64,000 nt of DNA from assembly GCA_965262605.1 (NCBI GenBank), contig CBDHFN010000002.1, positions 153,107-217,106 of the forward strand, read 5' to 3'. Below are positions 1,157 through 22,694 of the stretch, in pieces. The position numbers were made by a program, and so were the translations under genes. Under the pieces are notes generated by a model. The model was given only the letters and a program-made list of their open reading frames with translations, was not told the DNA's origin and did not search any database. Position 1 is the first letter of the stretch; every line of letters starts with the position of its first letter. This stretch comes from Alphaproteobacteria bacterium. Its GTDB lineage: Bacteria; Pseudomonadota; Alphaproteobacteria; JASGCL01.

Positions 1157-2039
1157 TCATCACCTTTTGCGGGTATTTATGCCGATTTTTAAATTTCAGA
1201 CTTATCCAAATCACAATCATGCTAACCACGACAACACCGCCCATAAGCGTTTGCTGGCTTGGCAATTGCCCAACAACCGCCCAAACCCATAAAGGACCAA
1301 ATAAAGTTTCCAATAAATATAATAATAAAGTTTCTTCGGGTGAGACATATTTTGACATGACGGAAGTTAAATAAAAGCTTAACGCGCAAATCATGCCATT
1401 AAAAAGCATGATTTTCATAGAATCATCAGGAATAACCACATTAAAATTCATAAAAGGTATGCAAATTAAAGCAGTTACCAATGAGCTAAGCGAAATAGTA
1501 AGCAAAATGTTAATTTTAGGGTGCGCCCGCAAATAAATATAAAATGCCGCTAAATTAAACGCGCATAAAACCGAAGCCATTGACCCCCAAAAATCGCCAC
1601 GCACAAAATCGCCCTGCATGACAATCGCAACCCCAAGAAAAACTCCAATAATTGTCACCCAATTAGTCAATGAAACTTTGGATTTCAAAAAAAATACCGA
1701 CAAAAACGCCCCAATTAAAGGCGAAGCAGCAATGATGACAAGATTTGATGCCACCGAATTATGCAAAGTTCCCAAAACGAACCCCAATGAACCCAAGGGA
1801 TAAAAAAACAACACAGGGTAAATAATTTTAAATTCCGCAAGAAAATTTTGAAAAATTGGCAAGTTTTTTCGCTTCATAATAAATAAAGCCAACATGGTTA
1901 AAACGATAAATTGTGAAAAATGCCGATAAAATGTCACTGTAAAGCTATCTTGATTTGCCAGCGTAATTAATAAACTATCAGGAGTTAAAATCATAACTCC
2001 TAACGCGGTGATTAATAAGGCTTTTAATTCTTGATTCAT
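1149..2039 (-). CDS. DMT/EamA-family membrane transporter (about 10 TM)
   Basis: 296 aa, highly hydrophobic with about 10 predicted helices. The fold assignment rests on the hydropathy pattern only. Confidence 0.55.
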   Translation of the reverse strand: MNQELKALLITALGVMILTPDSLLITLANQDSFTVTFYRHFSQFIVLTMLALFIMKRKNLPIFQNFLAEFKIIYPVLFFYPLGSLGFVLGTLHNSVASNLVIIAASPLIGAFLSVFFLKSKVSLTNWVTIIGVFLGVAIVMQGDFVRGDFWGSMASVLCAFNLAAFYIYLRAHPKINILLTISLSSLVTALICIPFMNFNVVIPDDSMKIMLFNGMICALSFYLTSVMSKYVSPEETLLLYLLETLFGPLWVWAVVGQLPSQQTLMGGVVVVSMIVIWISLKFKNRHKYPQKVMNE

Positions 2040-3280
2040 GAAGTTTTACTATCGCGAATCCATTGGCGTGAAATGGCTTCAATTTTTTCGCCTTGAAATA
2101 ATTGCGCGCCCATTTTAACCCCGACTTGCAACGATTCCAAGGAATTAATATTGCGCAAAATAAATCGTTCTGGACGAATTTGCAAAATAATATTTTTGAT
2201 GATTTCTTGAATATCAAATGAATGATGATGCGCGAAATTTTCTGGGGGTTCAAAAAATAATAAATCAAAGTCCAAATATTCGGCATTAACCAGACTTAAA
2301 ACATCTAAATTCACGCCATGAATCGCGACAATATGCCCCCTTGAACGCAAAAATTTTAAACATTCCGTGTATGAATTAATATTATGTAAAACATTATAAA
2401 TATCCACTTCAACCACCAAGAAATTTTCATTATTCCATTTATTATTTGTGACAAAGCTTAAAAATTCGGGGCTACAAATCGCACCTTGCGATAATTTCAA
2501 CCCCACGGATTTCGTGCCTAAAACCACGCTGCGCATTGCTAATAATCGCAATAATCGTTTTTGGCACGCATCGTCAAGACTATATCGCAAAAAACTTGAA
2601 GGGTCAAGTTCATTGGAAGGAAGAAGAATTTTACATAATTCATCAAGCTTAATTGATGCTTCGGTAAAAAGCTTTTCCGCCACGCCATGGTCGGGAAAAA
2701 ATGAAAAAATTGGCGTTTGTTGCACAAAATTTTTCAAATTCACGGTGGAGATATATTCTTCGGATTTTGAAATTTGCCGTGCCGTGGCGGGCGATTTGAT
2801 AAATTTGCCGCGTTCATCGTTTGGAAAATTTTTCGTGGTATTTTCAGGGTCAATAACATAAATAGTATCGCGAACAAACGATTCAAAATTGACGGGTGCT
2901 TGAAAATTATAAATGCGGTAAATTTCCGAAAATAAGCTAATTCGGCTGATTTTGAAAAAATACTCATCATGGCTGATGATTTCTGCCAAGGCGTTAAAGC
3001 GTTTTTCCAATGCTGACATGCCAATATTTTTTATGACAATAATTAAAACTCCAGAATCCGTATGAAAATACCGACCGGCAAAAGTCTTAATAATATCTTC
3101 AAACCATTTTTCAACAATTTTGCTGTAAATATATCGTTCGGTCGCATCGGCAATGATACTGCAATTAATAATAGTTGCGCAATAAAGCGTTTGCTTTGCG
3201 CGAATTATTTCTACATATTCTTTTAATTTCTGGGCGTGTTCGCCCAAAATTTGTGTATTCTCGTTATTATTTCCAGTCAT
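2036..3280 (-). CDS. Hypothetical cytoplasmic protein, possibly a degenerate GGDEF/EAL-like (c-di-GMP related) protein
   Basis: 414 aa. The C-terminal 150 aa loosely resemble an EAL domain with the DDFGTG motif replaced (IHGVNLDVLSL), ending in ...GAQLFQGEKI. A central RYFHTDSGVLIIV stretch resembles a degenerate RYGGDEF motif. Confidence 0.45.
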   Translation of the reverse strand: MTGNNNENTQILGEHAQKLKEYVEIIRAKQTLYCATIINCSIIADATERYIYSKIVEKWFEDIIKTFAGRYFHTDSGVLIIVIKNIGMSALEKRFNALAEIISHDEYFFKISRISLFSEIYRIYNFQAPVNFESFVRDTIYVIDPENTTKNFPNDERGKFIKSPATARQISKSEEYISTVNLKNFVQQTPIFSFFPDHGVAEKLFTEASIKLDELCKILLPSNELDPSSFLRYSLDDACQKRLLRLLAMRSVVLGTKSVGLKLSQGAICSPEFLSFVTNNKWNNENFLVVEVDIYNVLHNINSYTECLKFLRSRGHIVAIHGVNLDVLSLVNAEYLDFDLLFFEPPENFAHHHSFDIQEIIKNIILQIRPERFILRNINSLESLQVGVKMGAQLFQGEKIEAISRQWIRDSKTS

Positions 3281-4719: not shown

Positions 4720-5716
4720 CTTGCCATAAATCCCCTAAAATCGCCTTAACGATTTGAAAATTTGCGGCAATATCAATTTTTGTATCAGGGTAAGTTTCGC
4801 TTAATAAAAATTTTTCTTTATGATTAAGGGGCAAAATCGCATCGGCTATTTCTTGCATTTGCTCTAATTCGCCGTTGCAATGCAAGACTAAATCACAACC
4901 AGCATTAAGGCATTTTATGGTGCGCTCATGATAAGTGCCTTGCAACGCCTTCATTGATAAATCATCGGACATTATCAAGCCATGAAAACCAATTTGTTCG
5001 CGAATCACTTCGCCCAAAATACGCTTAGACATGGTGGCGCAATTATCCGCATCAAGCGAATTGTAAATAATATGCGCCGTCATCGCCAATGGGAATAAAT
5101 TGCAATATTCAAAGGGATAAAAATCATGGGCAAGGGTTGCAAGGTCTGCCGCAACGATTGGTAAATCTTCGTGCGAATCGCAATTGGCGCGCCCATGCCC
5201 GGGAATGTGCTTGATAATGGGTTTAATGCCATAATTCATCAATGTTTTACCATATTCATGCGCCAATATCGCGATGATATTTTTATCCGCGCTAAACGCG
5301 CGATTGCCAATAATATCATGCGCGCCGCTGATGGCTAAATCAATTAAAGGCGCGCAATTAATTGTAATTCCCAATTCTTGAAATTCGCCCGCTTGCCATG
5401 CGGCATAACTTTGAATTGCTTGAATCGCTTTTTGGGAATCACGCAAATAAGCTTGCCCAAAAATCGCCATATTCGGGGCGGGCAACCATTCGGGCGGTTT
5501 TAACCTGCGCACCCTGCCGCCTTCTTGGTCAATAAGAAATTCCAAATTATGCCCGATATTTATTGATTTACATTCGTCAATTAAAGCCTTAGTTTGCGCT
5601 TTATTTTTAATATTGCGGGCGAATAATATAATGCCCCATGGTTGATGTTTGGCGATAAATTGCCGTTCCAAAAAATTAAGTTCGGTTGATTTTATGCCAA
5701 TAATAAGCGGTTTCAT
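4712..5716 (-). CDS. nagZ: Beta-N-acetylhexosaminidase NagZ (GH3)
   Basis: 334 aa with GH3 NagZ motifs (DQEGGRVRRL, IKHIPGHGRANCDSHEDLP). Confidence 0.9.
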   Translation of the reverse strand: MKPLIIGIKSTELNFLERQFIAKHQPWGIILFARNIKNKAQTKALIDECKSINIGHNLEFLIDQEGGRVRRLKPPEWLPAPNMAIFGQAYLRDSQKAIQAIQSYAAWQAGEFQELGITINCAPLIDLAISGAHDIIGNRAFSADKNIIAILAHEYGKTLMNYGIKPIIKHIPGHGRANCDSHEDLPIVAADLATLAHDFYPFEYCNLFPLAMTAHIIYNSLDADNCATMSKRILGEVIREQIGFHGLIMSDDLSMKALQGTYHERTIKCLNAGCDLVLHCNGELEQMQEIADAILPLNHKEKFLLSETYPDTKIDIAANFQIVKAILGDLWQDE

Positions 5717-5718
5717 GG

Positions 5719-6999
5719 TTAAGCTCCTGCCACTGGTTTAAGAGTAGATTGCATGATTTTTTGCCAAATTATCGTGATGATTAATAAAACCATGGGTATG
5801 GCAAAGCCTAATTTATAGGCATCTTCTAAAATCCAGCCCCAGTCCATCACCATATCAATAACCACACCAATAAGCCATTGAAAAATAAAAGCCATGACAA
5901 ATGCCAATAAATTTAACGCGCTATTCACCCGCCCGGTGATGCGTATATCAAAAACCTGAGACAACAACCCATATGTTAAAATGCCCGACCCCATACAGCC
6001 AACAACTAAAAACATGCCCCAAAAGCTGAATTGCGGGGGCAAAAAAACAATAATGGCAAAGCCAAAAATGATAATATATTGCCCCGCTAAAATTAATCCT
6101 TCGGTGCTGCAAATACCCATTTTGGGTAAAATTTGCGAACCAAAGCCAAAAATCACATATCCTAACACCATACATACCGCCGCCAATGACATGATATTAC
6201 CAACATCATGCAAGCTAAACCCCGCCACTGATTTTAAATATAACGCCCCCCATAAGAAAATAACAGCAACCTGTGAGGCTTGGGAAATCACGGTGGGCGG
6301 GGTTAAAATCCAAAATCTTTTATCGGCAAAAATAATTTTATATTGCTTAAAGCTTGCCCAAAATTCTTCTTGATTATCATTGCTTGCCTTGGGTTTTTCA
6401 AATTTCGGGGGCATGAATAAAATCATCAAGGCTATTATAAAAGTCGCAACGGCTAAAATAATAAAAACACCCCGCCAATCGGTATAATTTAGCAATATTT
6501 CCACGGGACCTGAGCCAATTAAAGCCCCAGCACCGCCCGCCATCATTTGCATATTATTCATCATGGGTAATTTTTCGCGGGCAAAACATTCGCTATACGC
6601 CTTAAAAGCCGCCATAAGACTGGCACAGACACCAAAGCCGATTAACCCCCTGCCTAAGATTAAATGCCACGATTCTGTAGCTTGGGAAAAAATCAACGCC
6701 CCTAAAACTGCAAAAAATAATAAAAACCCTTCAGTTTTGCGCGCGCCAATTCTGTCAAGCATCACCCCCATTGGAATTTGCATCAAGGTAAATGTCAAAA
6801 AATAACTTGCTGTCATTAAGCCTAAATCAGATTTTGTCAGCAAAAATTCGGTGGATAAAATTCCGCCAACCATGCCATTTACCACGCGAAATAAAAACGA
6901 AATTAAATACCCCAAAGCAAAGGGAATATAAAGCCGAACAATAAACATAAAATTTAAATTAGCATGGGACGATTGCGAATTAATCATTGGTTTCACCAT
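5719..6999 (-). CDS. MFS transporter (possibly AmpG-type muropeptide permease, from context with nagZ)
   Basis: The ORF 5719-7035 encodes 12 or more TM helices. The likely start is an internal Met (6999 or 6987) just after the cytochrome stop at 6980. The stop lies 2 nt from the nagZ start. Confidence 0.7.
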   Translation of the reverse strand: MVKPMINSQSSHANLNFMFIVRLYIPFALGYLISFLFRVVNGMVGGILSTEFLLTKSDLGLMTASYFLTFTLMQIPMGVMLDRIGARKTEGFLLFFAVLGALIFSQATESWHLILGRGLIGFGVCASLMAAFKAYSECFAREKLPMMNNMQMMAGGAGALIGSGPVEILLNYTDWRGVFIILAVATFIIALMILFMPPKFEKPKASNDNQEEFWASFKQYKIIFADKRFWILTPPTVISQASQVAVIFLWGALYLKSVAGFSLHDVGNIMSLAAVCMVLGYVIFGFGSQILPKMGICSTEGLILAGQYIIIFGFAIIVFLPPQFSFWGMFLVVGCMGSGILTYGLLSQVFDIRITGRVNSALNLLAFVMAFIFQWLIGVVIDMVMDWGWILEDAYKLGFAIPMVLLIITIIWQKIMQSTLKPVAGA

Positions 7000-8962
7000 T
7001 TTCACTTTCTGGTTTAACAATGTTAACGCCGTCAATATTTATTGTATTTTTTGTCGCATTTATTGACTTGCCATGATATAAATGGCAAGTTTTGCAATCG
7101 GTTGAAGCCCCATTTTTAACATGGCATAAATCGCAAGTATCCTTGGAGATAACATGGAAATTCCTGTCGGGTTTTGTAATGGATAAATCATGAAATTCTT
7201 CGTAATAATTTGAAACTTCATTTAACTGATGGCATGCCAAACATGCGCCATCACCCAAAATTTCATAATGCGGTTTATGTTTAAATTTTGTGTATTTTAA
7301 TTGATTTTTCTCGGGCGGATTAATTACCCAATTAGTCATCAGTATTTTCATCGCGTTATTTTCAATTTCCGATTTTTTGTCTTTTATATTTATTTGTTCT
7401 TGGGAATGGCAATTTAAGCAACCACCAACAACTTGTCGGTTATGAAATAACTCATTTATCCTATCAAAACTTGGTTGCAACAGCGGAGTTTTGAAATAAT
7501 TTATAGTTGTGTCAATCCAATTCTTAATAAATTCATCTTGATGGGATATGGGGCGATATACTATGCCGTTTCGGTCTAATGTCCAATTTTGTTTGGGGTA
7601 AAGGCTTTCAAACGATTTCACAGGATTAAATGCGTTATGAATTGGACGATTTTCATGATATTTTATAATTTCATCGCGAAATTGCCCGCCAAAATACCGC
7701 ACTATAAATTGATTGCTTAAATCGCGCGGAATGGAAAGCGTTAATTTCTTATTATTTTCATCGTTACCATCAGTAATATCCAATAATAAAAGCTTGTAAG
7801 CCCATATTAATTTAGCAATTTCTTGCAAATCTGCTTTGCTTACTTTTGATAAATCATTCAATCCAGTTGCGCGATATTTATTCATTATTTCGCTTAATTC
7901 AATTTGCGAAGTAAGCAAATAATCCACCATTGGATTAAACCAATTTTTACCGCGCTCTAAAATTGGGTATGCGCCAATAATTACATTATTATTGGCAAAC
8001 GCATTCGTGTCAATGATTGGCAATGCAATCACTTCAATGGGTTTAATACCGGGCGCGTCTTGTCCGGTTACCGTGGCGATATGGCATGACAAACCGCAAG
8101 TTTGCTCAAAAGATTTAGTTGTCATGTCTGATTTATTGCCGTCTTGGGTATTATTAATAACATGGCAAAATTGGCAATCATTCGGCGCTTCACCCAAAGC
8201 TGGATTTAAATTTGCGAATTTTTCAAAATGCCGTGCATGGTCAAAAATAATTCTGCCACGGCGTTTAAATGGAAAATTCAGAAAATTAGGATGCGTATTT
8301 TCAAAATCCGTAATATTAATTAAATGGCATTGCGTGCATACTTCATTATTATCAGTTCGGTCTGTAAATGAAGTTTTACCATGCCCGCGATGGCATTCCG
8401 CGCAATCACCGGGCGATTCTTGTAATTCGGTTGCCCCAAAAATATATCCAAACCAGCGGCGATACCACGGACGCTCTTTTAGAAATATTCCGTGTTTGGC
8501 TAAATCAAATTGTTCTTTATTATGCGGATTTTTATAATTTTCGCCAACATCATGGCACGACAGACATGATTTATTATCATCGCCTAATTTTAAGGTAAAT
8601 ACATCGTGCAAAATTGGAAAAGACAGATTTTCATTGGGTTTAATATGGCATTGTTCGCAATTTTCAATGGATGCGTGGTTCGCGGATAATGGACCCGGGC
8701 TTAAAACATTATGCCCTAAAATGCCGCTAAAAATTACCATCATCAGCACAAAAGTTGCCAAACCTAATAAAAAAGAGATAATTAACCAGAATTTACGGCT
8801 TTCATATTTTGGTTCGCAATATTCAGATATTGGCAAATTTTCCAGCGATTTACCGCATTTACCTTGAATAGTCGGTCCGTATTTACAATGAATATTATCC
8901 GCGCACTTATAATTGGCATTCGGGCGCGGAAAATATCTTTTGCGAAAATTTTCAAATTTCAT
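6980..8962 (-). CDS. Membrane-anchored multiheme cytochrome c (about 10 haem-binding sites)
   Basis: 660 aa. It has nine CxxCH motifs (CEQCH, CLSCH, CAECH, CTQCH, CQFCH, CLNCH, CLACH, CDLCH, CKTCH) plus one CxxxCH (CGLSCH). It also has an N-terminal Cys-rich segment followed by a single TM helix (FWLIISFLLGLATFVLMMVIFSGIL). Confidence 0.85.
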   Translation of the reverse strand: MKFENFRKRYFPRPNANYKCADNIHCKYGPTIQGKCGKSLENLPISEYCEPKYESRKFWLIISFLLGLATFVLMMVIFSGILGHNVLSPGPLSANHASIENCEQCHIKPNENLSFPILHDVFTLKLGDDNKSCLSCHDVGENYKNPHNKEQFDLAKHGIFLKERPWYRRWFGYIFGATELQESPGDCAECHRGHGKTSFTDRTDNNEVCTQCHLINITDFENTHPNFLNFPFKRRGRIIFDHARHFEKFANLNPALGEAPNDCQFCHVINNTQDGNKSDMTTKSFEQTCGLSCHIATVTGQDAPGIKPIEVIALPIIDTNAFANNNVIIGAYPILERGKNWFNPMVDYLLTSQIELSEIMNKYRATGLNDLSKVSKADLQEIAKLIWAYKLLLLDITDGNDENNKKLTLSIPRDLSNQFIVRYFGGQFRDEIIKYHENRPIHNAFNPVKSFESLYPKQNWTLDRNGIVYRPISHQDEFIKNWIDTTINYFKTPLLQPSFDRINELFHNRQVVGGCLNCHSQEQINIKDKKSEIENNAMKILMTNWVINPPEKNQLKYTKFKHKPHYEILGDGACLACHQLNEVSNYYEEFHDLSITKPDRNFHVISKDTCDLCHVKNGASTDCKTCHLYHGKSINATKNTINIDGVNIVKPESENGETND

Positions 8963-9975
8963 TTATAACCTACTTCTGTAAATAAAATATATTTCCATAC
9001 ATGGAATATAATTATCGCCCAAAGGCTGGGCACAAATAAGGCGTGTATTTTATAAAAAAACCGCATTATAAAATAAAAAACATGCGTATTATTTAAAATA
9101 TTTTTATTTTCAATTAAAATCTTAATTGCGTGTAATTCTTGATGAAATTCATCGCCAAAAACACGAATTAATTCATTAATAATATCCAAATTCCTGCGAT
9201 ATGCGCGTTGATTAAATTGGAATTTACCGAAATAGTCAACATAATTACTGGCGAATAATTCCACGATATTTTCCGCCTTTTTGATTAATTTTAATCGTTC
9301 ATAATATTTGAAAAATTCTTGGTGAATAAAATATTTCTCGGTATAAATTTGATTATAGCTTAATAATTCATGGTTATTAATGGCAAGTTTCGGCAAAAAC
9401 CGATTAATAATTTCTTGAATTATCCCTGAAATACATATTATCATGGCAAAAATAATAATTAAATATCCCATAAAATTTAGACTGCGGTTATTAAAAACAT
9501 GAAAATAAAATATAATCAACCAAATTAACCCCGTCATGACATGCAGATATTTCCAATCCTTGGCATTGGGCAAAGGCAAAGCACCATATCGTTTTTTTAT
9601 GCCATAAATAGTTTGAATAGCCATACCAATTAACAAAAATATCCCCAAAAGCGATTGGTTATCATAACCAACTTTATTGCCATAAACAATCAATAACCCA
9701 ATTATCGCAACGGACACAAGCAACATATTTGATAAGGAAGGTAATTTTTTGCCAATAATTTTACAATAATTATATAATAATTTAAAATCTCTAAGGCTAT
9801 ATCGGCGGGTGAACGCTTGAGTTATCATTGCTTTTAATGGTAATTTTTTTAAAAAATAATAAATATTTAAAATATTAAAATATAAATCTTTGGCAAAGCT
9901 ATATAATTTCATGGTAAATTTAACCCATAAATTTTTCATAATATTCATCAAAAATTGTTGATAATTTTCGTTCAT
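8959..9975 (-). CDS. Ferric-reductase/NOX/MsrQ-like di-haem-b membrane protein (split FRD domain with a soluble insert)
   Basis: The ORF is 8959-10086, and the likely start is Met38 at 9975, giving an ATGA overlap with the ferredoxin stop. There are six predicted TM helices. Two helices each carry an H-x13-H pair (YLHVMTGLIWLIIFYFHVF; KIHALFVPSLWAIIIFHVW), which is the bis-haem signature of ferric reductase domains. About 110 aa of soluble sequence are inserted between TM4 and TM5. Confidence 0.7.
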   Translation of the reverse strand: MNENYQQFLMNIMKNLWVKFTMKLYSFAKDLYFNILNIYYFLKKLPLKAMITQAFTRRYSLRDFKLLYNYCKIIGKKLPSLSNMLLVSVAIIGLLIVYGNKVGYDNQSLLGIFLLIGMAIQTIYGIKKRYGALPLPNAKDWKYLHVMTGLIWLIIFYFHVFNNRSLNFMGYLIIIFAMIICISGIIQEIINRFLPKLAINNHELLSYNQIYTEKYFIHQEFFKYYERLKLIKKAENIVELFASNYVDYFGKFQFNQRAYRRNLDIINELIRVFGDEFHQELHAIKILIENKNILNNTHVFYFIMRFFYKIHALFVPSLWAIIIFHVWKYILFTEVGYK

Positions 9976-10445
9976 TGCCAATCCACTAATGCCTGTCTGT
10001 CCGATAAATTCACCCGCCGCATTGCCCCAGTCGGACAAGCAGACACGCATGCCGCACCGCCAAGTCTGCCAACGCATAAATCGCATTTAACCGCTTTTTT
10101 AATTGGGGTTTCGGTCTTTTGATTAAGCAATAATTCGCCATTATTATTAAAAATATCCACTATGCGCACGGAATGGAACGGGCATGCTTGTTCGCAATTA
10201 CCGCAACCAATGCAATCATTTTCCGAAATTGAAGTTTGATATGAAGTTGCAATTGGGCGTTGAATCGCGCTTGTCGGGCAACTTGTCAAGCATTGCGGAT
10301 CCAAACAATGCAAACAAGCATTCGCAAAAATTAACTTATTATATTGCGTTCCCGATCTTGCAAATCGGGGATTACCATCATGCGCATTGGCGCAAGCACT
10401 CACGCAATCATCGCACCCCGTGCATAATTGGGAATTAATAACCAT
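9972..10445 (-). CDS. Ferredoxin with four [4Fe-4S] clusters (NapG/NrfC/DmsB-type), no signal peptide
   Basis: 157 aa with four complete cluster motifs: CTGCDDCVSAC, CLHCLDPQCLTSCP, CIGCGNCEQACP and CDLCVGRLGGAACVSACP. Confidence 0.85.
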   Translation of the reverse strand: MVINSQLCTGCDDCVSACANAHDGNPRFARSGTQYNKLIFANACLHCLDPQCLTSCPTSAIQRPIATSYQTSISENDCIGCGNCEQACPFHSVRIVDIFNNNGELLLNQKTETPIKKAVKCDLCVGRLGGAACVSACPTGAMRRVNLSDRQALVDWQ

Positions 10446-10470
10446 GACTTCAGTGCCCGCGACAATATTT

Positions 10471-11598
10471 TCAGATATGAAAAAAAAAATTAACCCCTGG
10501 GTCGTAATTATTTTCAGATTTTTGGGCGATTTCTTTTCGGCGATAATTACTGATAATTTCTTTTTTTGCTAATTCCAGCGCGCTTAACGGAATAAATATC
10601 GCATCCAGCGCACCGATAGAGCTTACAGACACATTAAAAATTGGTGGTTCCTCCGATGAAGATTCCCAATATTCAATCAAGTCTTTAATCCCAAAAATAT
10701 CATCTTTAATGAGGTAATTTATAGTTTCCGTGCCAATTTCGCGGGGAATAAAAATTCGCCCATTGCCCGAAATTACTATCATTATACCATCTAATTTATC
10801 GCCTTTATCAAACAAGACTATTTCATCTTTTGTATCTTGCTTGGTAATATCGTCCTGCATACCATGGCGTTGAAATTGCGCTTGTTTTGTGATGGAAGCC
10901 AATAAATGTTCAGGGACATTTTCAAATAATTCAAAATTTTTCAAAGTATTATTCAAGACATTTACTTTATATGATTCAACGATTTGCTGATTAATAACTT
11001 GGTCGCGCAATAAAATTTGCCTTAACCCCTGCCAGCGCATTTCAATGACTTCGGCATCATCAGTCGCCACCACCGAAGCCGAACGAACAGAACGAGTCAT
11101 TGCCGCAATTTCGCCCAGCATTTGCCCAACTTTACAAGGAATTTTAATAATTGCATCATCAATCATGATTAAATCAAAACTGCTCATTTTGGCATTAACT
11201 TCATTATTAAAATGATGAAAAATATGCTTTGTGTCTGCTTCGCTACGCATTTCTTGGGCATAGTTTTTCACCATGAAAGCATTTGATATTTGATGAATAA
11301 TTTTAACGCTTGCGGTTTCTTCTTCGCCAACCAAGAAATTATCATCAGATCCTTCCAATAAAATTGTGAAATTTCCAGATTTTATAAAATAAATACTGGT
11401 CGCTAAATGCCCTTTTGACATTAAAATTTCACCGCGCTTAAATTTGCGAACGCGGCAATTTTGTTGCACAATATTTTGCAAAGTATAAGGTTCAGGGAAA
11501 TTACGCGGGTTTGCTTGGCTTAAAATTGTTTTTTCAAACAAGAAATTTTGCGCAAATTCGCTTAGCCCCCATTTATTATCAACAAATTTATCTGCCAT
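10471..11598 (-). CDS. Tandem cyclic-nucleotide-binding (CNB) domain protein with no recognisable output domain
   Basis: 375 aa with two Crp-like CNB signatures (FKRGEILMSKGHLATSIYFIKSGNFTIL and VLFDKGDKLDGIMIVISGNGRIF). I see no HTH. Confidence 0.65.
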   Translation of the reverse strand: MADKFVDNKWGLSEFAQNFLFEKTILSQANPRNFPEPYTLQNIVQQNCRVRKFKRGEILMSKGHLATSIYFIKSGNFTILLEGSDDNFLVGEEETASVKIIHQISNAFMVKNYAQEMRSEADTKHIFHHFNNEVNAKMSSFDLIMIDDAIIKIPCKVGQMLGEIAAMTRSVRSASVVATDDAEVIEMRWQGLRQILLRDQVINQQIVESYKVNVLNNTLKNFELFENVPEHLLASITKQAQFQRHGMQDDITKQDTKDEIVLFDKGDKLDGIMIVISGNGRIFIPREIGTETINYLIKDDIFGIKDLIEYWESSSEEPPIFNVSVSSIGALDAIFIPLSALELAKKEIISNYRRKEIAQKSENNYDPGVNFFFHI

Positions 11599-11600
11599 AA

Positions 11601-12860
11601 TTAATAATCCAATTCAATATCTGATGCTACTTGCGAAATACAGGCAAGCGTAAACCCATCTGGAACTGCGAAACTAGGTTGCACAATATTTTTTACTGCA
11701 CCTTTAACCTTGATTAAGCAAGCCCCGCAATTGCCAGTTTTACATCCGCTGTCCATAAATATATCATGTTCTTTGGCAATTTCAAGTATTGTTTTATCAT
11801 TCGGCGCGGGAATTTTAATATTACTGCGCAAAAAATTAATATTATGGATATTTTGGGCAACTTCTTCATGCGTCTCATTATCTAAAATTCGTTGAATTTT
11901 ATGCATTGAACGGGCATTGAAGGCTTCATAAATGAAATTTTCGGGGGGCAATCCCATTTTAATTAAATCGGGTAAAATCCCTTGAATCAAGGCATCTGAA
12001 CCGCAAAAATACACAATATAATCTGCGGGATTGCCTTGAAAATCAAAAATCTTGCTGGCTTTGGGGTGATTTGATTGATATTGTTCCGCCGCCTCATTCA
12101 TCATTTGGCGGGTAAATATCGGTATATAAGAAAAGTTTTTTTCCAACGAAAGCCCCGTTAGTTCACTGCCAAATGGTAAATTTAAAGCATCTTTTGCAAT
12201 ATGAATAATTTTAATATTTTGCATAATTGCTTCGTCAATTTCTTGCGCCATCGCATAAAATGGCGTTATACCAATACCACCCGCAAGAAAATACACTTTT
12301 TTTGTTGCATGTTCTGGGTTAAAGATAAAATTACCTTGCGGGGGGACAACGGCAATCGTATTACCAATTTTAATTTGTTTATGAATTTGCCTTGAAACGC
12401 TAAATTCATTGGTTGAATTTAAGTCTAATTTCACCGCAATTTCGTAATATTCATTTTGATTAGAATTATTAATTAAGCTATAACATCTCAGGTGCTTTTT
12501 TATTTTAGCATCGTAAAATTTACAAGTAATAAATTGACCAGCTTTAAATCTTGCTAATTTCGCCTTATTTACAGGATTAAGCCTTAATAAGACTATGTCT
12601 TTGGCGATTTCTTTTTTAATTTCAACTATATATCTTTGCGCTAAATTTTCCTTGTCAGTATGGTTAATTGCCTTGTCAATTTTGAATTTTAACCGAAATT
12701 TTTGATACGCCATAATTTCATACAAATATGATTTAAGTATTTTAGAATAAAACCGCCAGCTTAATTTAACGCAATAATAAAGCGCAACGACCATGATAAA
12801 ATACCAAATTGGATGCTGAAACATCAAATCAAAAATTTTTTGCCACGGCTGAAATTTCAT
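11601..12860 (-). CDS. Membrane-anchored FNR-family flavin reductase (FAD/NAD(P)H) with a C-terminal plant-type [2Fe-2S] ferredoxin domain
   Basis: 419 aa. It has an N-terminal TM helix, the RxYS FAD motif (RCYSLINNS), the NAD(P) motif VYFLAGGIGITPFYAM, and a C-terminal CKTGNCGAC...LAC (CX4CX2C...C). Its start forms an ATGA overlap with the stop of the methyltransferase. Confidence 0.8.
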   Translation of the reverse strand: MKFQPWQKIFDLMFQHPIWYFIMVVALYYCVKLSWRFYSKILKSYLYEIMAYQKFRLKFKIDKAINHTDKENLAQRYIVEIKKEIAKDIVLLRLNPVNKAKLARFKAGQFITCKFYDAKIKKHLRCYSLINNSNQNEYYEIAVKLDLNSTNEFSVSRQIHKQIKIGNTIAVVPPQGNFIFNPEHATKKVYFLAGGIGITPFYAMAQEIDEAIMQNIKIIHIAKDALNLPFGSELTGLSLEKNFSYIPIFTRQMMNEAAEQYQSNHPKASKIFDFQGNPADYIVYFCGSDALIQGILPDLIKMGLPPENFIYEAFNARSMHKIQRILDNETHEEVAQNIHNINFLRSNIKIPAPNDKTILEIAKEHDIFMDSGCKTGNCGACLIKVKGAVKNIVQPSFAVPDGFTLACISQVASDIELDY

Positions 12861-14419
12861 ATCATCGCACCAATTTTCAAATAATGGTTATATTTTGCGC
12901 TTACTAAATTTTTAAAATTTTGCATAATTTCATCGTCGCTTTTTGCTTCGGCATTCACTGTGATTCTGCCTGCTTTCATTAATCCCATCAAATGATCGGC
13001 AATATCACCGATAGTATGTTCGCCATTCATCAATGGAATAATAATTTTATCAGTATCATCAACCTTAGAATTATTGTGAAAAATTGTGCAAATATTGCCA
13101 TTTATTTGGCTTGAAACCGCGCCCCGCGCCCAACCATTTATCTTGGGTTTTTCATCAACTTGCACCGAGATTGGAAATTTCACGGGTGTCATCGTTAAAA
13201 ATCCGCGGGCAAATAATTGTAATATATTTGATTTAAAGAATGTTAAAATTTTATCTTGGGCTAATTCATTATTTTTATTATGAATAAATTGCACCCATTC
13301 ATTAAGCATCATGGGCAATCGGTGTCCCGCCATAATTTCTAAAACTTTATTCGGTAATTCATTTTCATTGCCGATTGAAACTTCGTTTGCACGCAATTTC
13401 CAATTGCCATTTTCAGTTCTGGACACATCAAAATGCAAATAAAAATTCATGGATTCAAGCAATTCAACATTCCAAACTTTACTTAATTTACGCTCTTTTC
13501 GGCAAACGACTGACGAACGAAATTGCCGATTCAAGACAAAATCAGCCATTTGCTCGGCATCTATGCGTTTTCTTGATTCTTCAAATATTTTTTTGACATT
13601 GGGTGCCATATTATCAAGGATATGGGCAATGGCATTGCTTTCCGCGACAAATGCCAAGCCATTATTTTCGCACATGCTATTAAATTCATGAAAATATAGT
13701 GGCTCATTAATGCCTTCCAATAATTCGTGCGACAAATAATAATCAGGGGCATTCATCCAAGTATCATAACGGTTACGCAGTTCTTTCACTAAAATATTTT
13801 CATTTTCGCCCGCTAATTGAGAGATTTCTTCAAAAAATTTTTTAGATTTTTCCAGTTGTAATTTTTTATCTTTGCTATATTTTCTGCCTTCATACATCAT
13901 AATATCGCGAATTGTTAATAAAAAATTCCAGCCCGGACGCGTATTATAACTTAAAATCGCTAAACCATCGTCGGTTAAACTATGTTGCAGGTTTAATAAA
14001 ATTGCTTTTTGCACATGATCCGGCACCCATGAAAAAACACCATGGCAAATTATATAATCAAATTTTCCCATTAAAGTTGCATAATCAGCAATTGAACCAC
14101 TTATGAAATGTATATTTTCCACGCCACCATTGGTTGCTATCCTGCGTGCTTCGGCAATTTGTTTATCGGAAATATCTATGCCAAAAAATTGCCCTTGGGG
14201 GAATTTAATTGCCATGGGAAAAAGATTATTACCAATCGCGCAACCAATCTCCAAAACCCGCATTTTATCCATCGGCGTTGGGTTTAAACCAAATAATTTG
14301 CCGATTAAATATAAATTATCGGGGTGCGTGTTCGCATGCGTGCCACCCGGATATAATATATCATTATAACTATCTCTTGCATCGGCTTCGGAATAATCGG
14401 TCATATTTTCCCCAATCAA
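12857..14419 (-). CDS. Class I SAM-dependent methyltransferase with a C-terminal regulatory-type extension
   Basis: 520 aa. The N-terminal Rossmann SAM motif is VLEIGCAIGNNLFPMA...DYIICHGVFSWV. The roughly 300 aa C-terminal extension resembles methyltransferase regulatory domains. Confidence 0.7.
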   Translation of the reverse strand: MIGENMTDYSEADARDSYNDILYPGGTHANTHPDNLYLIGKLFGLNPTPMDKMRVLEIGCAIGNNLFPMAIKFPQGQFFGIDISDKQIAEARRIATNGGVENIHFISGSIADYATLMGKFDYIICHGVFSWVPDHVQKAILLNLQHSLTDDGLAILSYNTRPGWNFLLTIRDIMMYEGRKYSKDKKLQLEKSKKFFEEISQLAGENENILVKELRNRYDTWMNAPDYYLSHELLEGINEPLYFHEFNSMCENNGLAFVAESNAIAHILDNMAPNVKKIFEESRKRIDAEQMADFVLNRQFRSSVVCRKERKLSKVWNVELLESMNFYLHFDVSRTENGNWKLRANEVSIGNENELPNKVLEIMAGHRLPMMLNEWVQFIHNKNNELAQDKILTFFKSNILQLFARGFLTMTPVKFPISVQVDEKPKINGWARGAVSSQINGNICTIFHNNSKVDDTDKIIIPLMNGEHTIGDIADHLMGLMKAGRITVNAEAKSDDEIMQNFKNLVSAKYNHYLKIGAMI

Positions 14420-18543: not shown

Positions 18544-20541
18544 ATGAACGACATAATTTTAGAATGCAGAAATCTGGCAATATCCTATTTTACCAAAGAT
18601 GGTGAAGTTCCCGCTGTTTTTGATTTTAATATGAAAATTAAAAAAGGCGAATCAATGGGGCTTGTCGGCGAATCAGGTTGTGGCAAATCCACGGTGGCTT
18701 TGGCTATCATGAATTATATGGGTAAGAATGGCAAAATTGTCGGCGGGCAAATCTTGTTCCAAGGGCAAAATATGCTGGATATGAAGGAAAATGATTTAAA
18801 TAAATTGCGCGGTAATGGCTTGGCGATGGTTTATCAAGAACCCATGGCGTCGTTAAACCCATCAATGCTGATAAGCGAGCAATTGATGGAAATTCCCATG
18901 ATTCATCGTCAAGTTAGCGAAACAGAAGCCCGCAAACAAGCGTTTGAAATTCTGAACAAAGTTAAAATTCCTGACCCGAATCGCGTCTTAAACGCCTATC
19001 CGCATCAGATTTCGGGCGGACAACAACAACGAATCGTCATTGCCATGGCGTTATTATCGCAACCAAAATTATTGCTTTTGGACGAACCGACCACGGCGCT
19101 TGATGTTACAGTTGAAGCGGGTATTGTTGATTTAATTGCAAGTATCGCCAAGGAGCAAGGCACAAGTCTTTTATATATTTCCCATAATTTAGGCTTAATT
19201 TATGAAACTTGTCAAAATATCACCGTGATGTATTCAGGGCAAGCGGTTGAGCAAGGAAGCGTGCGCGAAGTATTTAGCACCATGCGCCACCCTTACACAA
19301 GGGGGCTTTTTAACGCCATTCCCCTGCCAAGTGCTAATAAATTCACGCGCCCATTAATTCCAATTCCCGGTCAATTACCCTTGCCGCATGAACGACCACA
19401 GGGGTGTAATTTTGGTCCAAGATGCGAATTTTTTGATAATGAGCTTTGCGGTAAAGATATAATGATGCAAGAAATTTCCAAGGGGCATGATTCACGATGC
19501 GCCAAAGTTGCCCAAATTAATTGGCAAGCCGAACCAAAATTCAAACCCGTTATTACCAAAAATCCTTCTGATGAAATTGTTTTGGATGTCGTTAATTTAC
19601 AAAAATATTATCCGATAAATATTGGCATGTTTGGGTCGGAAAAACGCACAATTAAAGCCAATGAACATATTAATTTTACCGCAAAAAAAGGGCAAACTTT
19701 GGCGATTGTTGGCGAATCGGGTTGTGGCAAGTCAACTTTGGCTAAAATTTTGATGGGTTTAGAAAATGCCACGGGCGGTAAAGTGCATTTCATGGGCGAA
19801 GATATTCAAAACACCCATGTTAATGAACGGGGCGCAAAATTAGTCGCCAATTTACAAATGATTTTTCAAAATCCTTTTGATACGCTAAATCCATCGCAAA
19901 CTATTGGGTTTCAAATCAGGCGCGTATTGCAAAAATTCGGTATTGGTAAAAATAGCACCGAACGCGAAGATATGATGCTGAATTTATTAGACCGCGTGAA
20001 ATTACCCCGCGAATTTGCCCGCCGTAAGCCAAGGCAATTATCGGGCGGACAAAAACAACGCATTGGCATTGCGCGCGCCTTTGCTGGCAAGCCAAGCATG
20101 GTAATTGCCGATGAACCAGTCTCTGCACTAGATGTCTCTGTGCAAGCCGCGGTTACGGAATTATTAATGGAAATTCAACAACAAAACGATACAACCATGG
20201 TTTTTATCAGCCATGATTTATCCTTAGTTCGCTATATAGCCGACGAAGTTGTGGTAATTTACTTGGGGCATATTGTTGAAAAAGGCAAAATTGACGAAGT
20301 ATTTAATAACCCGCAACATCCATATACAAAGGCATTATTATCATCGGTGCCTGTTGCCGATATTAACCACCAAAAATCGCGCATTATTCTTGACGGCGAA
20401 ATTCCTTCGGCGATTAATCCGCCAAGTGGTTGCAAATTTCACACCCGATGCCCAAGCTATATCGGCGATATTTGCAAAAATTCTGAACCAAAAACCAACC
20501 AAATTACGCCATCGCACAGCACAGCTTGTCATTTGCAATAA
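18544..20541 (+). CDS. ABC transporter ATP-binding protein with two fused ATPase domains (YejF/OppDF-like)
   Basis: 665 aa. There are two Walker A motifs (GESGCGKST twice), two signature motifs (LSGGQQQR, LSGGQKQR) and Opp-type C-terminal Cys motifs. Confidence 0.9.
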   Translation: MNDIILECRNLAISYFTKDGEVPAVFDFNMKIKKGESMGLVGESGCGKSTVALAIMNYMGKNGKIVGGQILFQGQNMLDMKENDLNKLRGNGLAMVYQEPMASLNPSMLISEQLMEIPMIHRQVSETEARKQAFEILNKVKIPDPNRVLNAYPHQISGGQQQRIVIAMALLSQPKLLLLDEPTTALDVTVEAGIVDLIASIAKEQGTSLLYISHNLGLIYETCQNITVMYSGQAVEQGSVREVFSTMRHPYTRGLFNAIPLPSANKFTRPLIPIPGQLPLPHERPQGCNFGPRCEFFDNELCGKDIMMQEISKGHDSRCAKVAQINWQAEPKFKPVITKNPSDEIVLDVVNLQKYYPINIGMFGSEKRTIKANEHINFTAKKGQTLAIVGESGCGKSTLAKILMGLENATGGKVHFMGEDIQNTHVNERGAKLVANLQMIFQNPFDTLNPSQTIGFQIRRVLQKFGIGKNSTEREDMMLNLLDRVKLPREFARRKPRQLSGGQKQRIGIARAFAGKPSMVIADEPVSALDVSVQAAVTELLMEIQQQNDTTMVFISHDLSLVRYIADEVVVIYLGHIVEKGKIDEVFNNPQHPYTKALLSSVPVADINHQKSRIILDGEIPSAINPPSGCKFHTRCPSYIGDICKNSEPKTNQITPSHSTACHLQ

Positions 20542-21974: not shown

Positions 21975-22694
21975 TTAATTTGGCGGTAAATCCCATAATA
22001 TTTTGGTAAGTTTAACGGCGTTTTCTAAATTTTCCATGGTAAATTCGGGGGAAAAATCATCATTACCAAAGCTTATAGCCCAATTAGCATCAGTTTTTTG
22101 AATAATATCTTGAATTTGGTCATGATGAAACCCCGTGGTGATATTGCCGCTATACACGGCACCGCCATCGGCTGTATTTAGCAAAAGTTTTAATTCCAAA
22201 ACGGGTGCGGGGGGCGTTATAGTCATAAAATATTTACCATTTTTATCATATCCCAAGGATATATTATGCCAATATAACCAGCATACTTTTTTGCGGTCGT
22301 ATTTGTCAGTACGGCAAGAAATTTGGTAATCATCGTCATTGCCCCTTAAAAAAGGGGCGTGCGTATCTTTTTGCAATTGGGCATTGTAATTCGCGTAATT
22401 CACAATATAAAACGAACCATTAATATCGCCAATTTCTTGCAAATGAATAAAATTCTCTAAATATGGCAACTCGCTATACACACGGCAAGAAATTCTGCCT
22501 TCGGGCAAAATGGGTTTATTGCGCATTAATAAATGCGGAATAATTTGCCGTGGCGCGTTAAATTTTGCGGGACTGCCTTCATAAATTATATCGGGGCAAA
22601 ACAGCAAATTCTCTGCCTTGGCATTTTTATAGCCCAAAAAGCAAACCACGCCTAAAATAGCAAAAAATTTAAAATAATTGACGCACGACTTCAT
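21975..22694 (-). CDS. Secreted hypothetical protein (signal peptide)
   Basis: 239 aa with an N-terminal signal sequence (FFAILGVVCFLGYKNAKA). I recognise no catalytic motif. Confidence 0.5.
   Translation of the reverse strand: MKSCVNYFKFFAILGVVCFLGYKNAKAENLLFCPDIIYEGSPAKFNAPRQIIPHLLMRNKPILPEGRISCRVYSELPYLENFIHLQEIGDINGSFYIVNYANYNAQLQKDTHAPFLRGNDDDYQISCRTDKYDRKKVCWLYWHNISLGYDKNGKYFMTITPPAPVLELKLLLNTADGGAVYSGNITTGFHHDQIQDIIQKTDANWAISFGNDDFSPEFTMENLENAVKLTKILWDLPPN

Follow-up and report, generated by a model that had tools for sequence, protein, structure and literature searches.

The window that we analysed, a 64-kb stretch of a 679-kb contig, contains seven closely packed minus-strand ORFs (Table 1). 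The original prediction had treated these as seven coupled genes, and the layout was found as it described: the ATGA start/stop overlaps (12857-12860, 9972-9975, and 8959-8962) and a 2-nt gap at 11599-11600 were confirmed, and the 3' end of the cytochrome gene is overlapped by the MFS gene, whose ATG at 6999 gives an overlap of 20 nt and whose ORF is extendable to a TTG at 7035. The tight packing extends downstream into NagZ-ScpA-ScpB, which follow after a further 2-nt gap (5717-5718), and therefore spacing alone does not delimit the unit.

Table 1. Features of the gene block, with positions in the window
Feature	Position	Strand	Basis
Protein-lysine methyltransferase, Rickettsia PKMT1/PKMT2 family; first gene of the block	12857..14419	-	Pfam, PDB match, L001 orthologue
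Membrane-anchored FNR-family flavoprotein	11601..12860	-	Pfam, NCBIfam, PDB, motifs, ATGA overlap with methyltransferase gene
cNMP-binding N-terminal part of cNMP-polyferredoxin gene, frameshifted in this assembly	10471..11598	-	Pfam; fused in relatives
A10 homopolymer (T10 on the coding strand), +1 frameshift site	10480..10489	+ (run)	Longest homopolymer in the window
Polyferredoxin, C-terminal part of the same cNMP-ferredoxin gene	9972..10445	-	Pfam, NCBIfam, PDB, Cys positions
PCC4-type inner-membrane protein (IMP), 338 aa	8959..9975	-	
Membrane-anchored decahaem cytochrome c (PCC4 "10-haem MHC")	6980..8962	-	Motif count, alignment, Pfam multihaem families
MFS transporter, gene overlapping cytochrome 3' end	5719..6999	-	Pfam, NCBIfam, L001 orthologue

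Gene products and cofactor motifs

Profile searches with Pfam and NCBIfam, together with motif inspection, bore out the domain content and every cofactor motif that had been predicted. The methyltransferase, with a likely true start at the ATG at 14404 (515 aa, compared with 514 aa in the metagenomic contig L001), comprises a SAM methyltransferase domain followed by MethyTransf_Reg and, at the C-terminus, a winged-helix domain (Pfam Methyltransf_31/25/12; MethyTransf_Reg, 2.4e-19; PKMT_2nd, 5.9e-8). The same three-domain layout is found in Rickettsia PKMT1 and PKMT2, which match over the full length (PDB 5dnk, E 8.5e-62, residues 15-503 here against 36-537; PDB 5doo, E 3.5e-61). The Rickettsia enzymes methylate the surface protein OmpB, whereas the gene here is translationally coupled to a redox operon. 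At the other end of the block, the MFS transporter matches Pfam MFS_1 (6e-36) and shows weak kinship to the anion:cation-symporter type (NCBIfam TIGR00893, 1.3e-25, far under the cut-off).

The flavoprotein begins with a transmembrane helix, which is followed by a barrel that binds FAD/FMN, a domain for NAD(P), and a plant-type [2Fe-2S] domain at the C-terminus (Pfam FAD_binding_6, NAD_binding_1, and Fer2), with the RxYS motif as RCYS at residue 125, GGIGITP at 194, and C373-x4-C-x2-C...C407. These motifs and the hydrophobic N-terminal helix are kept in nine orthologues of the PCC4 subgroup II described below. Its identification with a NOX dehydrogenase domain was rejected, as its type is that of phthalate dioxygenase reductase (PDB 2pia, 6e-17) and flavohaemoglobin (NCBIfam Hmp reductase module, 1.4e-35).

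The cNMP-binding ORF matches Pfam cNMP_binding in three stretches (1.1e-18), and its first domain retains a phosphate-binding-cassette-like motif, GE..A...RSA. The polyferredoxin has 16 Cys in four [4Fe-4S] motifs and a HycB/HydN/NrfC-type fold (Pfam Fer4_7, Fer4_11, and other Fer4 families; NCBIfam AegA N-terminal region and HydN; PDB HycB3/HycB4, FwdF, and HycB). These two ORFs lie in different frames with the A10 run between them, and deletion of one base from the run yields a 541-aa protein that aligns end to end with the fused cNMP-ferredoxins of 12 related loci, one of them L001 (543 aa), in all of which the gene is uninterrupted. The deletion restores NFFFISENIVAGTEVMVINS, for which the L001 counterpart is NYFFIEENLIAGTEVMVINS. 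The comparison indicates that the cNMP protein and the ferredoxin are a single gene split by one extra base in A10, and the ancestral cluster thus had six genes rather than the seven originally counted. The polyferredoxin lacks a Tat signal, and in relatives it is continuous with cNMP domains; its predicted cytoplasmic location could thus be upheld.

For the IMP, we took the ATG at 9975 as start (338 aa, compared with 339 aa in an orthologue) rather than position 10086, where the longest ORF begins. Of its five transmembrane helices, TM4 and TM5 are separated by a cytoplasmic helical insert of ~110 aa, and TM3 and TM5 each carry a His pair (H145-x13-H159 and H311-x13-H325, respectively); all four His are kept (4/4) in 45 IMPs. 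The N-terminus and the TM4-TM5 insert are rich in K/R and the short periplasmic loops hold at most one K or R, which places one His of each pair near each membrane face, and the four His are the predicted ligands of two haems b that stack across the membrane. The window IMP is below the curated threshold of every haem-b family, with only sub-threshold similarity to DUF4405, Ni_hydr_CYTB (cytochrome b561), and Ferric_reduct, and Foldseek returned no significant structural match. The best Pfam kin is DUF4405, to which 21 of 44 family members are similar (best E 2.5e-4); the window IMP itself scores 18.4 bits, under the gathering score of 26.7. One DUF4405 protein has been found by experiment to bind haem b (Huang et al. 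2024, mSystems; PMC11334425), and this together with the weak homology and the conserved motifs supports haem b binding by the IMP. The protein may also hold a quinone site.

The N-terminal tail of the cytochrome (~55 aa) is cytoplasmic and rich in Cys; after it come one transmembrane helix, six haem motifs, a non-haem domain of ~200 aa, and four further haem motifs. Nine of the ten are CxxCH and one is CxxxCH (CGLSCH); in a four-sequence alignment all ten, and eight further His, are invariant. Both this protein and the flavoprotein are thus held by a single transmembrane helix, in line with the anchoring that had been predicted. The cytochrome matches multihaem families in Pfam, and we found 160 relatives among 185,579 species genomes.

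Conservation of the block and its relation to PCC4

The six genes recur in the same order in L001, where they are collinear, mostly overlapping, and 40-60% identical at the protein level, with different flanks; the methyltransferase (60% identical) and the MFS transporter (59%) hold the same positions there, the latter with the same overlap. A four-gene core (FNR-Fer2, cNMP-Fdx, IMP, and decahaem cytochrome) recurs in 12 loci, from Methyloligellaceae, other Hyphomicrobiales, one Planctomycetaceae MAG, and metagenome contigs. The association of these genes is therefore not a matter of chance.

The original prediction regarded the system as undescribed, and on this point it was mistaken, as sequence comparison identifies the core with subgroup II of "PCC4", one of two subgroups of a system predicted bioinformatically by genome comparison (He, Barco, Emerson & Roden 2017, Front Microbiol 8:1584; PMC5566968). 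Both have a homologous decahaem cytochrome, a homologous five-helix IMP of ~270-340 aa in which TM3 and TM5 each bear Hx13H, a PF13247 Fe-S gene immediately upstream of the IMP gene, and a Fer2/FAD/NAD redox protein with C-terminal Fer2. Across 44 related loci with 9 kb or more of sequence to either side of the decahaem gene, this gene was accompanied by the IMP, the FNR/Fer2 gene, and a tetrahaem cytochrome in all 44, by a porin-like protein in 43, and by a pentahaem cytochrome in 42; these counts agree with the published PCC4, its subgroups, and its IMP, which argues for homology. Throughout subgroup II there is a cytoplasmic four-cluster ferredoxin, and the flavoprotein gene immediately follows the porin and pentahaem genes, in the same orientation.

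Several features set the present locus apart. The IMP has F307 in place of the W of Wx3H on TM5, and SGIIQ in place of SGxxG; the PCC4 paper (PMC5566968) discusses neither the cNMP domains of the Fe-S protein nor the NAD(P)H link. Porin, tetrahaem, and pentahaem genes are all missing from the 64-kb window, which agrees with the earlier statement that it holds no outer-membrane partner, and they may lie in another part of the genome. In their place, the block carries a methyltransferase of the PKMT type and an MFS transporter; among PCC4-type loci, neither was found in any other than L001, and both are lineage-specific additions. By gene content, the block thus appears to be the inner-membrane half of PCC4, with the outer-membrane part missing from its neighbourhood, and the porin-less form also occurs in one metagenomic relative.

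Comparison with other electron-transfer systems

The likening of the IMP Hx13H pairs to ferric-reductase/NOX domains was already made by He et al. (PMC5566968), and the original view of a split NOX-like module stood in part: the His pairs and the FAD/NAD domains are present, but the flavoprotein is of another type and the IMP is related to the ferric-reductase family only below threshold. Enzymes with that domain (NOX, DUOX, FRE, STEAP, SpNOX) have six helices rather than five plus a cytoplasmic insert. The locus differs from them further in that the IMP has no Pfam Ferric_reduct or significant Foldseek match, the PDR/Hmp-type flavoprotein is separate and has its own [2Fe-2S], and a four-cluster ferredoxin and a decahaem cytochrome are interposed. 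Closer in its split design is the two-component NOX-like system of E. coli, MsrQ (YedZ) with flavin reductase Fre, in which a soluble or peripheral NAD(P)H flavoprotein passes electrons to a dihaem b membrane protein and on to a periplasmic redox partner. There, however, the partner is the molybdoenzyme MsrP and not a multihaem cytochrome, no Fe-S relay is involved, and MsrQ is a true member of the FRD family, which the IMP is not. MsrQ-like cytochromes are discussed along with the flavinylation-associated DUF4405 cytochromes b, which share four central His with the IMP but are described with six helices and linked to ApbE and flavinylated partners that are absent here (PMC11334425).

The systems of sulfate reducers (Hmc, Tmc, Qrc, DsrMKJOP) and quinol:multihaem systems (CymA/NapC/NrfH, NrfCD, CbcL) likewise combine a periplasmic multihaem cytochrome, a membrane cytochrome b/NrfD-type subunit, and four-cluster ferredoxin-like subunits in moving electrons across or along the inner membrane, and weak NCBIfam matches to HmcA (6.5e-6), HmcB, DsrO, QrcC, NrfC, and NrfH were obtained, all far under family cut-offs. 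These systems use quinones or HdrD-like cytoplasmic subunits and periplasmic, Tat-exported Fe-S subunits, whereas here the Fe-S protein is predicted to be cytoplasmic and the input module to bind NAD(P)H.

Direction of electron flow and proposed path

NAD(P)H (~-320 mV) is a far better donor than plausible periplasmic donors are for NAD(P)+, and outward electron movement goes with the membrane potential; on both grounds we infer an outward direction. The constant linkage to an NAD(P)-binding flavoprotein argues that the cytoplasmic partner is NAD(P)(H) and not only the quinone pool. We therefore consider it moderately probable that the block is a PCC4-type subgroup II cytoplasmic/inner-membrane module for quinone-independent electron export from NAD(P)H to the periplasm.

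He et al. proposed the opposite flow for PCC4: an Fe(II)/Mn(II)-type extracellular or periplasmic donor reduces the multihaem cytochromes, and the IMP, as a quinone-reducing cytochrome b, feeds the quinone pool, with FNR and Fe-S proteins as accessories (PMC5566968). Such uptake seems unlikely here, as it gives no reason why an NAD(P)-binding FNR/[2Fe-2S] protein accompanies all 44 complete loci (44/44) or why a cytoplasmic four-cluster ferredoxin occurs throughout subgroup II; the window contains no porin for reaching an external donor, no quinone-binding motif was identified, and inward transfer through a transmembrane dihaem would oppose the membrane potential.

Alternatively, the same NAD(P)H-fed chain could generate or detoxify oxidants, with the periplasmic haems reducing O2 to superoxide or peroxide, or reducing peroxide, as a bacterial equivalent of NADPH oxidase of the kind that the original prediction had raised. 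We regard this as quite improbable, since NOX enzymes pass electrons to O2 straight from the outer haem b and have no need of a decahaem cytochrome, and since ten haems that are largely bis-His, as the eight invariant non-motif His suggest, resemble a wire and not a catalytic site. In most relatives the wire is extended to a porin, and the IMP falls outside the FRD family by both Pfam and Foldseek.

Little credence can be given to the block being a decaying PCC4 remnant that has lost its outer-membrane half and is undergoing pseudogenisation. The frameshift at A10, the absence of the porin and of the tetrahaem and pentahaem cytochromes encoded in 42-44 of 44 complete relatives, and a cluster GC content slightly under that of the window (35% against 38%) would fit such decay. 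A single-base homopolymer difference is, however, a typical assembly error, an example of which He et al. describe for a PCC3 porin gene (PMC5566968). The remaining ORFs are intact and all cofactor ligands are kept (4/4 IMP His, 10/10 haem motifs, 16 ferredoxin Cys, and the FNR motifs). Moreover, the porin-less six-gene block is intact in L001, with a fused cNMP-ferredoxin, at only 40-60% identity and with different flanks, which points to long-term purifying selection on the porin-less form.

Reverse operation, in which electrons from a periplasmic donor are driven inward and NAD(P)+ is reduced for biosynthesis, is extremely unlikely: FNR enzymes are reversible, and among the organisms with the cluster are chemolithoautotrophic Fe(II) oxidisers, for which NAD(P)H is a requirement, but by standard potentials Fe(II) or cytochrome c at at least 0 V could not reduce NAD(P)+ without energy input, the membrane potential would oppose inward flow through a simple transmembrane dihaem, and Pfam and NCBIfam revealed no energy-coupling subunit in the cluster.

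The original interpretation is partly supported as a whole, and its continuous chain FAD -> 2Fe2S -> 4x[4Fe4S] -> 2 haem b -> 10 haem c is consistent with the conserved gene association. From the gene content, cofactor motifs, conserved synteny, predicted topology, and family relationships, we infer haem b binding and the following order of carriers. The membrane-tethered flavoprotein would oxidise NAD(P)H and release single electrons via its own [2Fe-2S] to the four [4Fe-4S] clusters of the cytoplasmic polyferredoxin, whose N-terminal cyclic-nucleotide-binding domains could gate or tune the flow. The polyferredoxin would dock on the cytoplasmic helical domain of the IMP, and two bis-His haems b, ligated by H145/H311 on the cytoplasmic side and H159/H325 on the periplasmic side, would take the electrons across the bilayer to the membrane-anchored periplasmic decahaem cytochrome. 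A genuine frameshift with no re-initiation at the ferredoxin part would break the chain in this genome. Possible roles for the methyltransferase and the MFS transporter are modification of a chain component and transport of the substrate or product. In most relatives the chain would continue via the tetrahaem and pentahaem cytochromes and the porin to the cell surface, whereas here the decahaem cytochrome would pass electrons to a periplasmic or diffusible acceptor, for which chelated Fe(III), another metal or metalloid, an organic oxidant, or O2/peroxide are candidates.

Gene content of the redox block

By homology, the redox block is best classed as a porin-less variant of subgroup II of PCC4, a porin-cytochrome cluster predicted from genomes by He et al. 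2017 (PMC5566968), with an added methyltransferase and MFS transporter. The seven consecutive minus-strand ORFs of the original prediction were present with the predicted sizes, their ATGA start/stop overlaps were visible in the junction sequences, and the 2-nt gap and the overlap of the MFS gene with the 3' end of the cytochrome gene were likewise found. By motif count, as originally predicted, the flavoprotein carries RCYS, GGIGITP and Cx4Cx2C...C, the ferredoxin has 16 Cys arranged as four cluster motifs, the cytochrome has 9 CxxCH and one CxxxCH, and the membrane protein has two Hx13H pairs. The count of seven genes did not hold. L001, a porin-less metagenomic relative of the block, encodes the four-cluster ferredoxin and the cNMP domains in a single 543-aa gene. 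In the window, the two parts are out of frame with each other, and a T10 run of the coding strand stands between them. Deletion of one base yields a 541-aa protein that aligns end to end with the L001 fusion and with those of eight subgroup-II loci in other bacteria. This alignment points to either a recent slippage mutation or an error of assembly as the origin of the split, and the ancestral unit, as judged from these comparisons, is six genes. The inner-membrane protein (IMP) should start at the ATG at 9975 rather than at the longest-ORF start of the public annotation (record P0001), as supported by a 339-aa orthologue and the ATGA junction; the P0001 start overlaps the ferredoxin gene by 115 nt. 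Promoter and terminator scans did no better than on shuffled sequence and are neutral on whether the block forms a single transcript.

Positions of the redox block, its junctions and other features in the window
Feature	Position	Strand	Detail
Redox block	5719-14419	minus	seven consecutive ORFs
ATGA start/stop overlap	12857-12860	minus	
Gap between genes	11599-11600	minus	2 nt
A10 (T10 on coding strand)	10480-10489	plus	longest homopolymer in the whole 64 kb
ATGA start/stop overlap	9972-9975	minus	
IMP gene	8959-9975	minus	338 aa
Longest-ORF version of IMP (P0001)	8959-10086		375 aa
ATGA start/stop overlap	8959-8962	minus	
Decahaem cytochrome gene	6980-8962	minus	
Cys-rich tail of cytochrome	8795-8962		residues 1-56
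MFS gene end to NagZ start	5716-5721		2 nt
ORF	2036-3280	minus	414 aa; no Pfam match at E<=1e-8
ORF	20529-21899	minus	456 aa; no Pfam match at E<=1e-8
ORF	21975-22694	minus	239 aa; no Pfam match at E<=1e-8
ORF	24869-25534	plus	221 aa; no Pfam match at E<=1e-8

Housekeeping genes flank the block: the DksA gene lies divergent upstream, and the genes that follow downstream on the strand of the block encode NagZ, ScpA, ScpB, an unknown protein, an EamA-type protein and MlaE. Coding density is high throughout, many genes overlap or abut, and the tight spacing between the MFS and NagZ genes is followed by further overlaps along the NagZ-ScpA-ScpB run. These genes, which serve cell-wall recycling and chromosome segregation, may share a transcript with the redox block; alternatively, such close packing may just be usual for this genome. 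The 414-aa ORF, which also lacks an NCBIfam match at E<=1e-5, lies between the ScpB and EamA-type transporter genes in the same packed minus-strand run as the cluster. A search of the whole 64 kb with Rfam gave no family at gathering score, and no tRNA, rRNA, riboswitch or sRNA was detected.

Correspondence with PCC4

In the PCC4 passages of PMC5566968, the system is made up of a conserved inner-membrane protein, a porin, 'other redox-active proteins' and three multihaem cytochromes (4, 5 and 10 haems). Only Hyphomicrobium carries subgroup I; subgroup II differs in the domain order of its redox protein and has an Fe-S (PF13247) gene lying upstream of that for the IMP. The same passages give the IMP five helices, of which the fourth bears SGxxG and the third and fifth each bear Wx3Hx13H. 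The cluster matches subgroup II as described there, and the earlier view that it was an undescribed system could not be maintained. PCC4 itself is a known but uncharacterised kind of system, for which literature searches returned no later experimental work and one passing mention besides the original paper.

The likeness extends to each shared component. The cytochrome is homologous to the 10-haem MHC, and its ten haem motifs are all invariant in the alignment with relatives. The membrane protein has five helices (AF2 model and hydropathy), with W141-x3-H145-x13-H159 on TM3 and H311-x13-H325 on TM5, although F307 replaces the W on TM5 and, on TM4, S183-G184 is followed by Q187 in place of the second G of SGxxG. 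Like the PCC4 redox protein, the flavoprotein carries FAD_binding_6, NAD_binding_1 and Fer2 domains (Pfam), and it is orthologous to the subgroup-II FNR-Fer2 proteins. The ferredoxin gene, directly upstream of the IMP gene with an ATGA overlap as in subgroup II, matches Fer4_11 (PF13247; 1.8e-9) and is orthologous to the cNMP-ferredoxin fusions of 12 loci. Cyclic-nucleotide domains, methyltransferases and FAD are absent from the main text of PMC5566968, where NAD(P)H comes up in other contexts only.

Unlike PCC4, the window lacks the defining porin and the tetrahaem and pentahaem cytochromes within its 64 kb. An HMM built from 57 porin-like proteins of related loci found nothing at E<=1 in the six-frame translation, in agreement with the claim that the window holds no outer-membrane partner. 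Tetrahaem and pentahaem family HMMs also gave no match in that translation, and the decahaem gene is the sole ORF of the window with two or more CxxCH motifs. Upstream of the L001 cluster, a stretch of 9.9 kb likewise contained no porin. L001 has the same six genes as the window, in the same order and with the same overlaps, at 40-60% protein identity, whereas its neighbours differ (ThrRS and IF3 vs DksA). Conservation of the gene order was borne out in L001; a metagenome scan for close relatives of the two recovered the L001 contig again and one weak match, giving no third example. Its contig number had suggested that L001 might come from a eukaryote-associated assembly; this was rejected, as the contig is present in a metagenome collection.

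The methyltransferase and the MFS transporter adjoin no PCC4-type locus other than those of the window and L001. The MFS transporter closes the block. The methyltransferase, first in the block, matches Rickettsia PKMT1/PKMT2 over its full length (residues 15-504; 5dnk, E 8.5e-62; 5doo, E 3.5e-61) and shares their Pfam layout of methyltransferase, MethyTransf_Reg and winged-helix domains, so that by family it is a putative PKMT-type protein-lysine methyltransferase.

Scanning the decahaem alignment against one genome per species gave 160 relatives, mostly from Hyphomicrobiaceae, Methyloligellaceae, Aestuariivirga and Rhodomicrobium, together with one Planctomycetaceae MAG and one Bacteroidota MAG; the genome of the window was not among the best 80 of these 160. 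Relatives found by tblastn (Hyphomicrobium, Methyloligellaceae and others) are 27-32% identical over about 570 residues, and their clusters hold a porin gene and genes for 4-, 5- and 10-haem cytochromes. Our ORF clustering and HMM searches covered those 83 of 85 loci that carry the decahaem gene, and the IMP-family HMM matched the ORF adjoining the decahaem gene in 81 of the 83. In the 44 loci whose flanks reach at least 9 kb on either side of that gene, an IMP, an FNR/Fer2-type gene and a tetrahaem cytochrome were each nearby in all 44, a porin-like protein of about 550 aa in 43, and a pentahaem cytochrome in 42. A protein search with a pentahaem profile gave 3,275 matches, the best 120 of which are neutral on a copy elsewhere on the contig of the window. 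The cNMP-ferredoxin fusion together with an FNR bearing a C-terminal Fer2 occurs in twelve loci, including L001 and L004 and not counting the window; Hyphomicrobium-type loci have no ferredoxin and carry Fer2 at the N-terminus. P0008, a distant IMP member, lies on a metagenome contig ordered FNR-Fer2, cNMP-ferredoxin, membrane protein, multihaem cytochrome.

The survey also brought up companions that are absent from the window, namely a TPR protein (Pfam TPR_CcmH_CycH, 1.4e-24; L023:4579-5907 and L017:12220-13374 in two related loci) found in 35 of the 44 complete PCC4-type loci, and a YceI-like protein that accompanies Hyphomicrobium-type loci; neither is mentioned in the PCC4 passages of He et al. 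2017 (PMC5566968). The sole full-flank locus without a porin-like gene within 10 kb of the decahaem gene (L006; Rhodomicrobiaceae MAG JBHJOB010000077.1) retains the tetrahaem cytochrome, IMP and FNR-type gene, and may represent a second, independent porin-less arrangement.

The membrane protein and its proposed redox partners

The IMP belongs to a nearly orphan family without a curated model. Exhaustive HMMER searching of 1.84 billion representative proteins gave 62 matches at E<=1e-3; their length is mostly about 270 aa, and identity is about 20-27% for every match except one. Word-indexed protein searches returned only the IMP itself and, for the decahaem cytochrome, only two relatives. In a 45-member alignment, four His are invariant (H145, H159, H311, H325), a nearly invariant W lies four residues ahead of the first His in each pair, the fourth helix has an S-G motif, and the cytoplasmic helical insert has a conserved K..LD motif. 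The AF2 model (44-sequence alignment; pLDDT 84.7, pTM 0.71) has five long transmembrane helices plus the insert. Charge distribution places the N-terminus and insert in the cytoplasm, which would bring H145 and H311 nearer the cytoplasmic face, with H159 and H325 on the periplasmic side, the predicted positions being those expected for two stacked bis-His haems.

Two Hx13H pairs on TM3 and TM5, which by predicted topology put one pair of His near each membrane face, recall those of ferric-reductase/NOX domains, a resemblance already noted for the PCC4 IMP in PMC5566968. Pfam and NCBIfam searches supported all domain calls of the original prediction but one: the membrane protein matched only DUF4405 (PF14358) and below threshold (18.4 bits vs a gathering cut-off of 26.7), a relationship at superfamily level only. 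Ferric_reduct (PF01794) did not match the window IMP at E<=1. Within the family, sub-threshold matches were to DUF4405 in 21 of 44 members, Ni_hydr_CYTB in 15 of 44 and Ferric_reduct in 4 of 44 (best E 1.7e-3); haem b binding has been demonstrated for one DUF4405 protein (PMC11334425). Foldseek of the model against the PDB gave nothing significant, and a PDB profile search with the family gave coiled-coil noise only. We conclude from these comparisons that the IMP appears to be a distinct family in the broad dihaem-cytochrome-b group, ferric-reductase-like in its working but not a member. The interpretation as a split NOX was not upheld. The IMP lacks PF01794 membership, and the flavoprotein is not of the NOX type. 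Unlike the FAD_binding_8/NAD_binding_6 dehydrogenase of NOX, the latter has FAD_binding_6 and NAD_binding_1, its NAD_binding_6 match (5.8e-4) being below cut-off. Among solved structures, it comes closest to phthalate dioxygenase reductase and to flavohaemoglobin, in the latter case to the reductase module, and it begins with a hydrophobic helix followed by a positively charged segment.

The ferredoxin part, which has no signal peptide, resembles the electron-wire subunits HycB3/HycB4, FwdF and HycB. The GE..A..RSA cassette of the first cNMP domain is kept in the window, L001 and the related locus L011, and is degenerate in several relatives. The cytochrome consists of a Cys-rich cytoplasmic tail, one TM helix, six haem motifs, a non-haem middle and four further haem motifs, with eight invariant non-motif His, as is typical of bis-His wire cytochromes. 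It scored below cut-off against NrfH (TIGR03153; 19 bits vs 134), the MtrC/MtrF domain (29.6 vs 30) and HmcA (25 vs 400), and a PDB sequence search returned NrfB only (E 0.011). At family thresholds, its sequence thus shows no homology to the MtrA/CymA/NrfH-type proteins of the quinol-linked multihaem systems MtrAB/MtoAB/PioAB and CymA/NapC/NrfH.

The cytochrome tail carries the motif C20-x5-C26-x2-GP-x4-G-x-C36 ... C49-x-P ahead of the TM helix, and could be a metal or cluster binder or a docking site. The motif is also present in L001 and the related loci L011, L023, L046 and L071, in two or three copies in some subgroup-II relatives, and is absent from L069, L076, L077 and all subgroup-I proteins. 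Strict co-occurrence of the tail with the cNMP-ferredoxin was rejected, as L069, L076 and L077 have the ferredoxin and no tail.

Direction of electron flow and its meaning

The originally proposed cofactor chain remains a reasonable interpretation, in which electrons would pass from NAD(P)H through flavin, [2Fe-2S], four [4Fe-4S] clusters and two haem b to ten haem c. Such a chain would best explain why an NAD(P)-binding flavoprotein is always linked to the IMP and the decahaem cytochrome, and it also fits the cytoplasmic location of the polyferredoxin. From established bioenergetics, outward flow would be favoured by redox potentials and membrane potential, both of which would work against flow inward to NAD(P)+. 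With no porin module in the 64 kb, the acceptor in this organism should be periplasmic or diffusible. He et al. proposed in their PCC4 passages that the IMP feeds electrons to the quinone pool (PMC5566968). This model is possible, and the IMP may hold a quinone site; a direct NAD(P)H-to-cytochrome-c route differs from it, and the flavoprotein in every complete locus and the cNMP polyferredoxin in subgroup II point to this quinone-bypassing route.

More tentatively, and as a possibility that we consider rather unlikely, PCC4 in general and its porin-less form in particular might be a cNMP-gated, quinone-independent export route from NAD(P)H via a novel dihaem b family to periplasmic cytochromes c, repurposed here with the PKMT and MFS proteins as a periplasmic reductase (e.g., for iron acquisition or for oxidant handling or generation). 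If true, this would turn the published Fe(II)-uptake model around and provide a bacterial multi-subunit analogue of NOX/FRE assembled from unrelated parts. Several candidate systems for extracellular electron transfer, PCC4 among them, are known from comparative genomics only, and the compact six-gene form, as a minimal version, could serve heterologous tests of how electrons cross the inner membrane. Should direction and cNMP control be confirmed, the system would be a new type of regulated transmembrane conduit beside NOX/MsrQ, CymA/Cbc and Hmc/Tmc.
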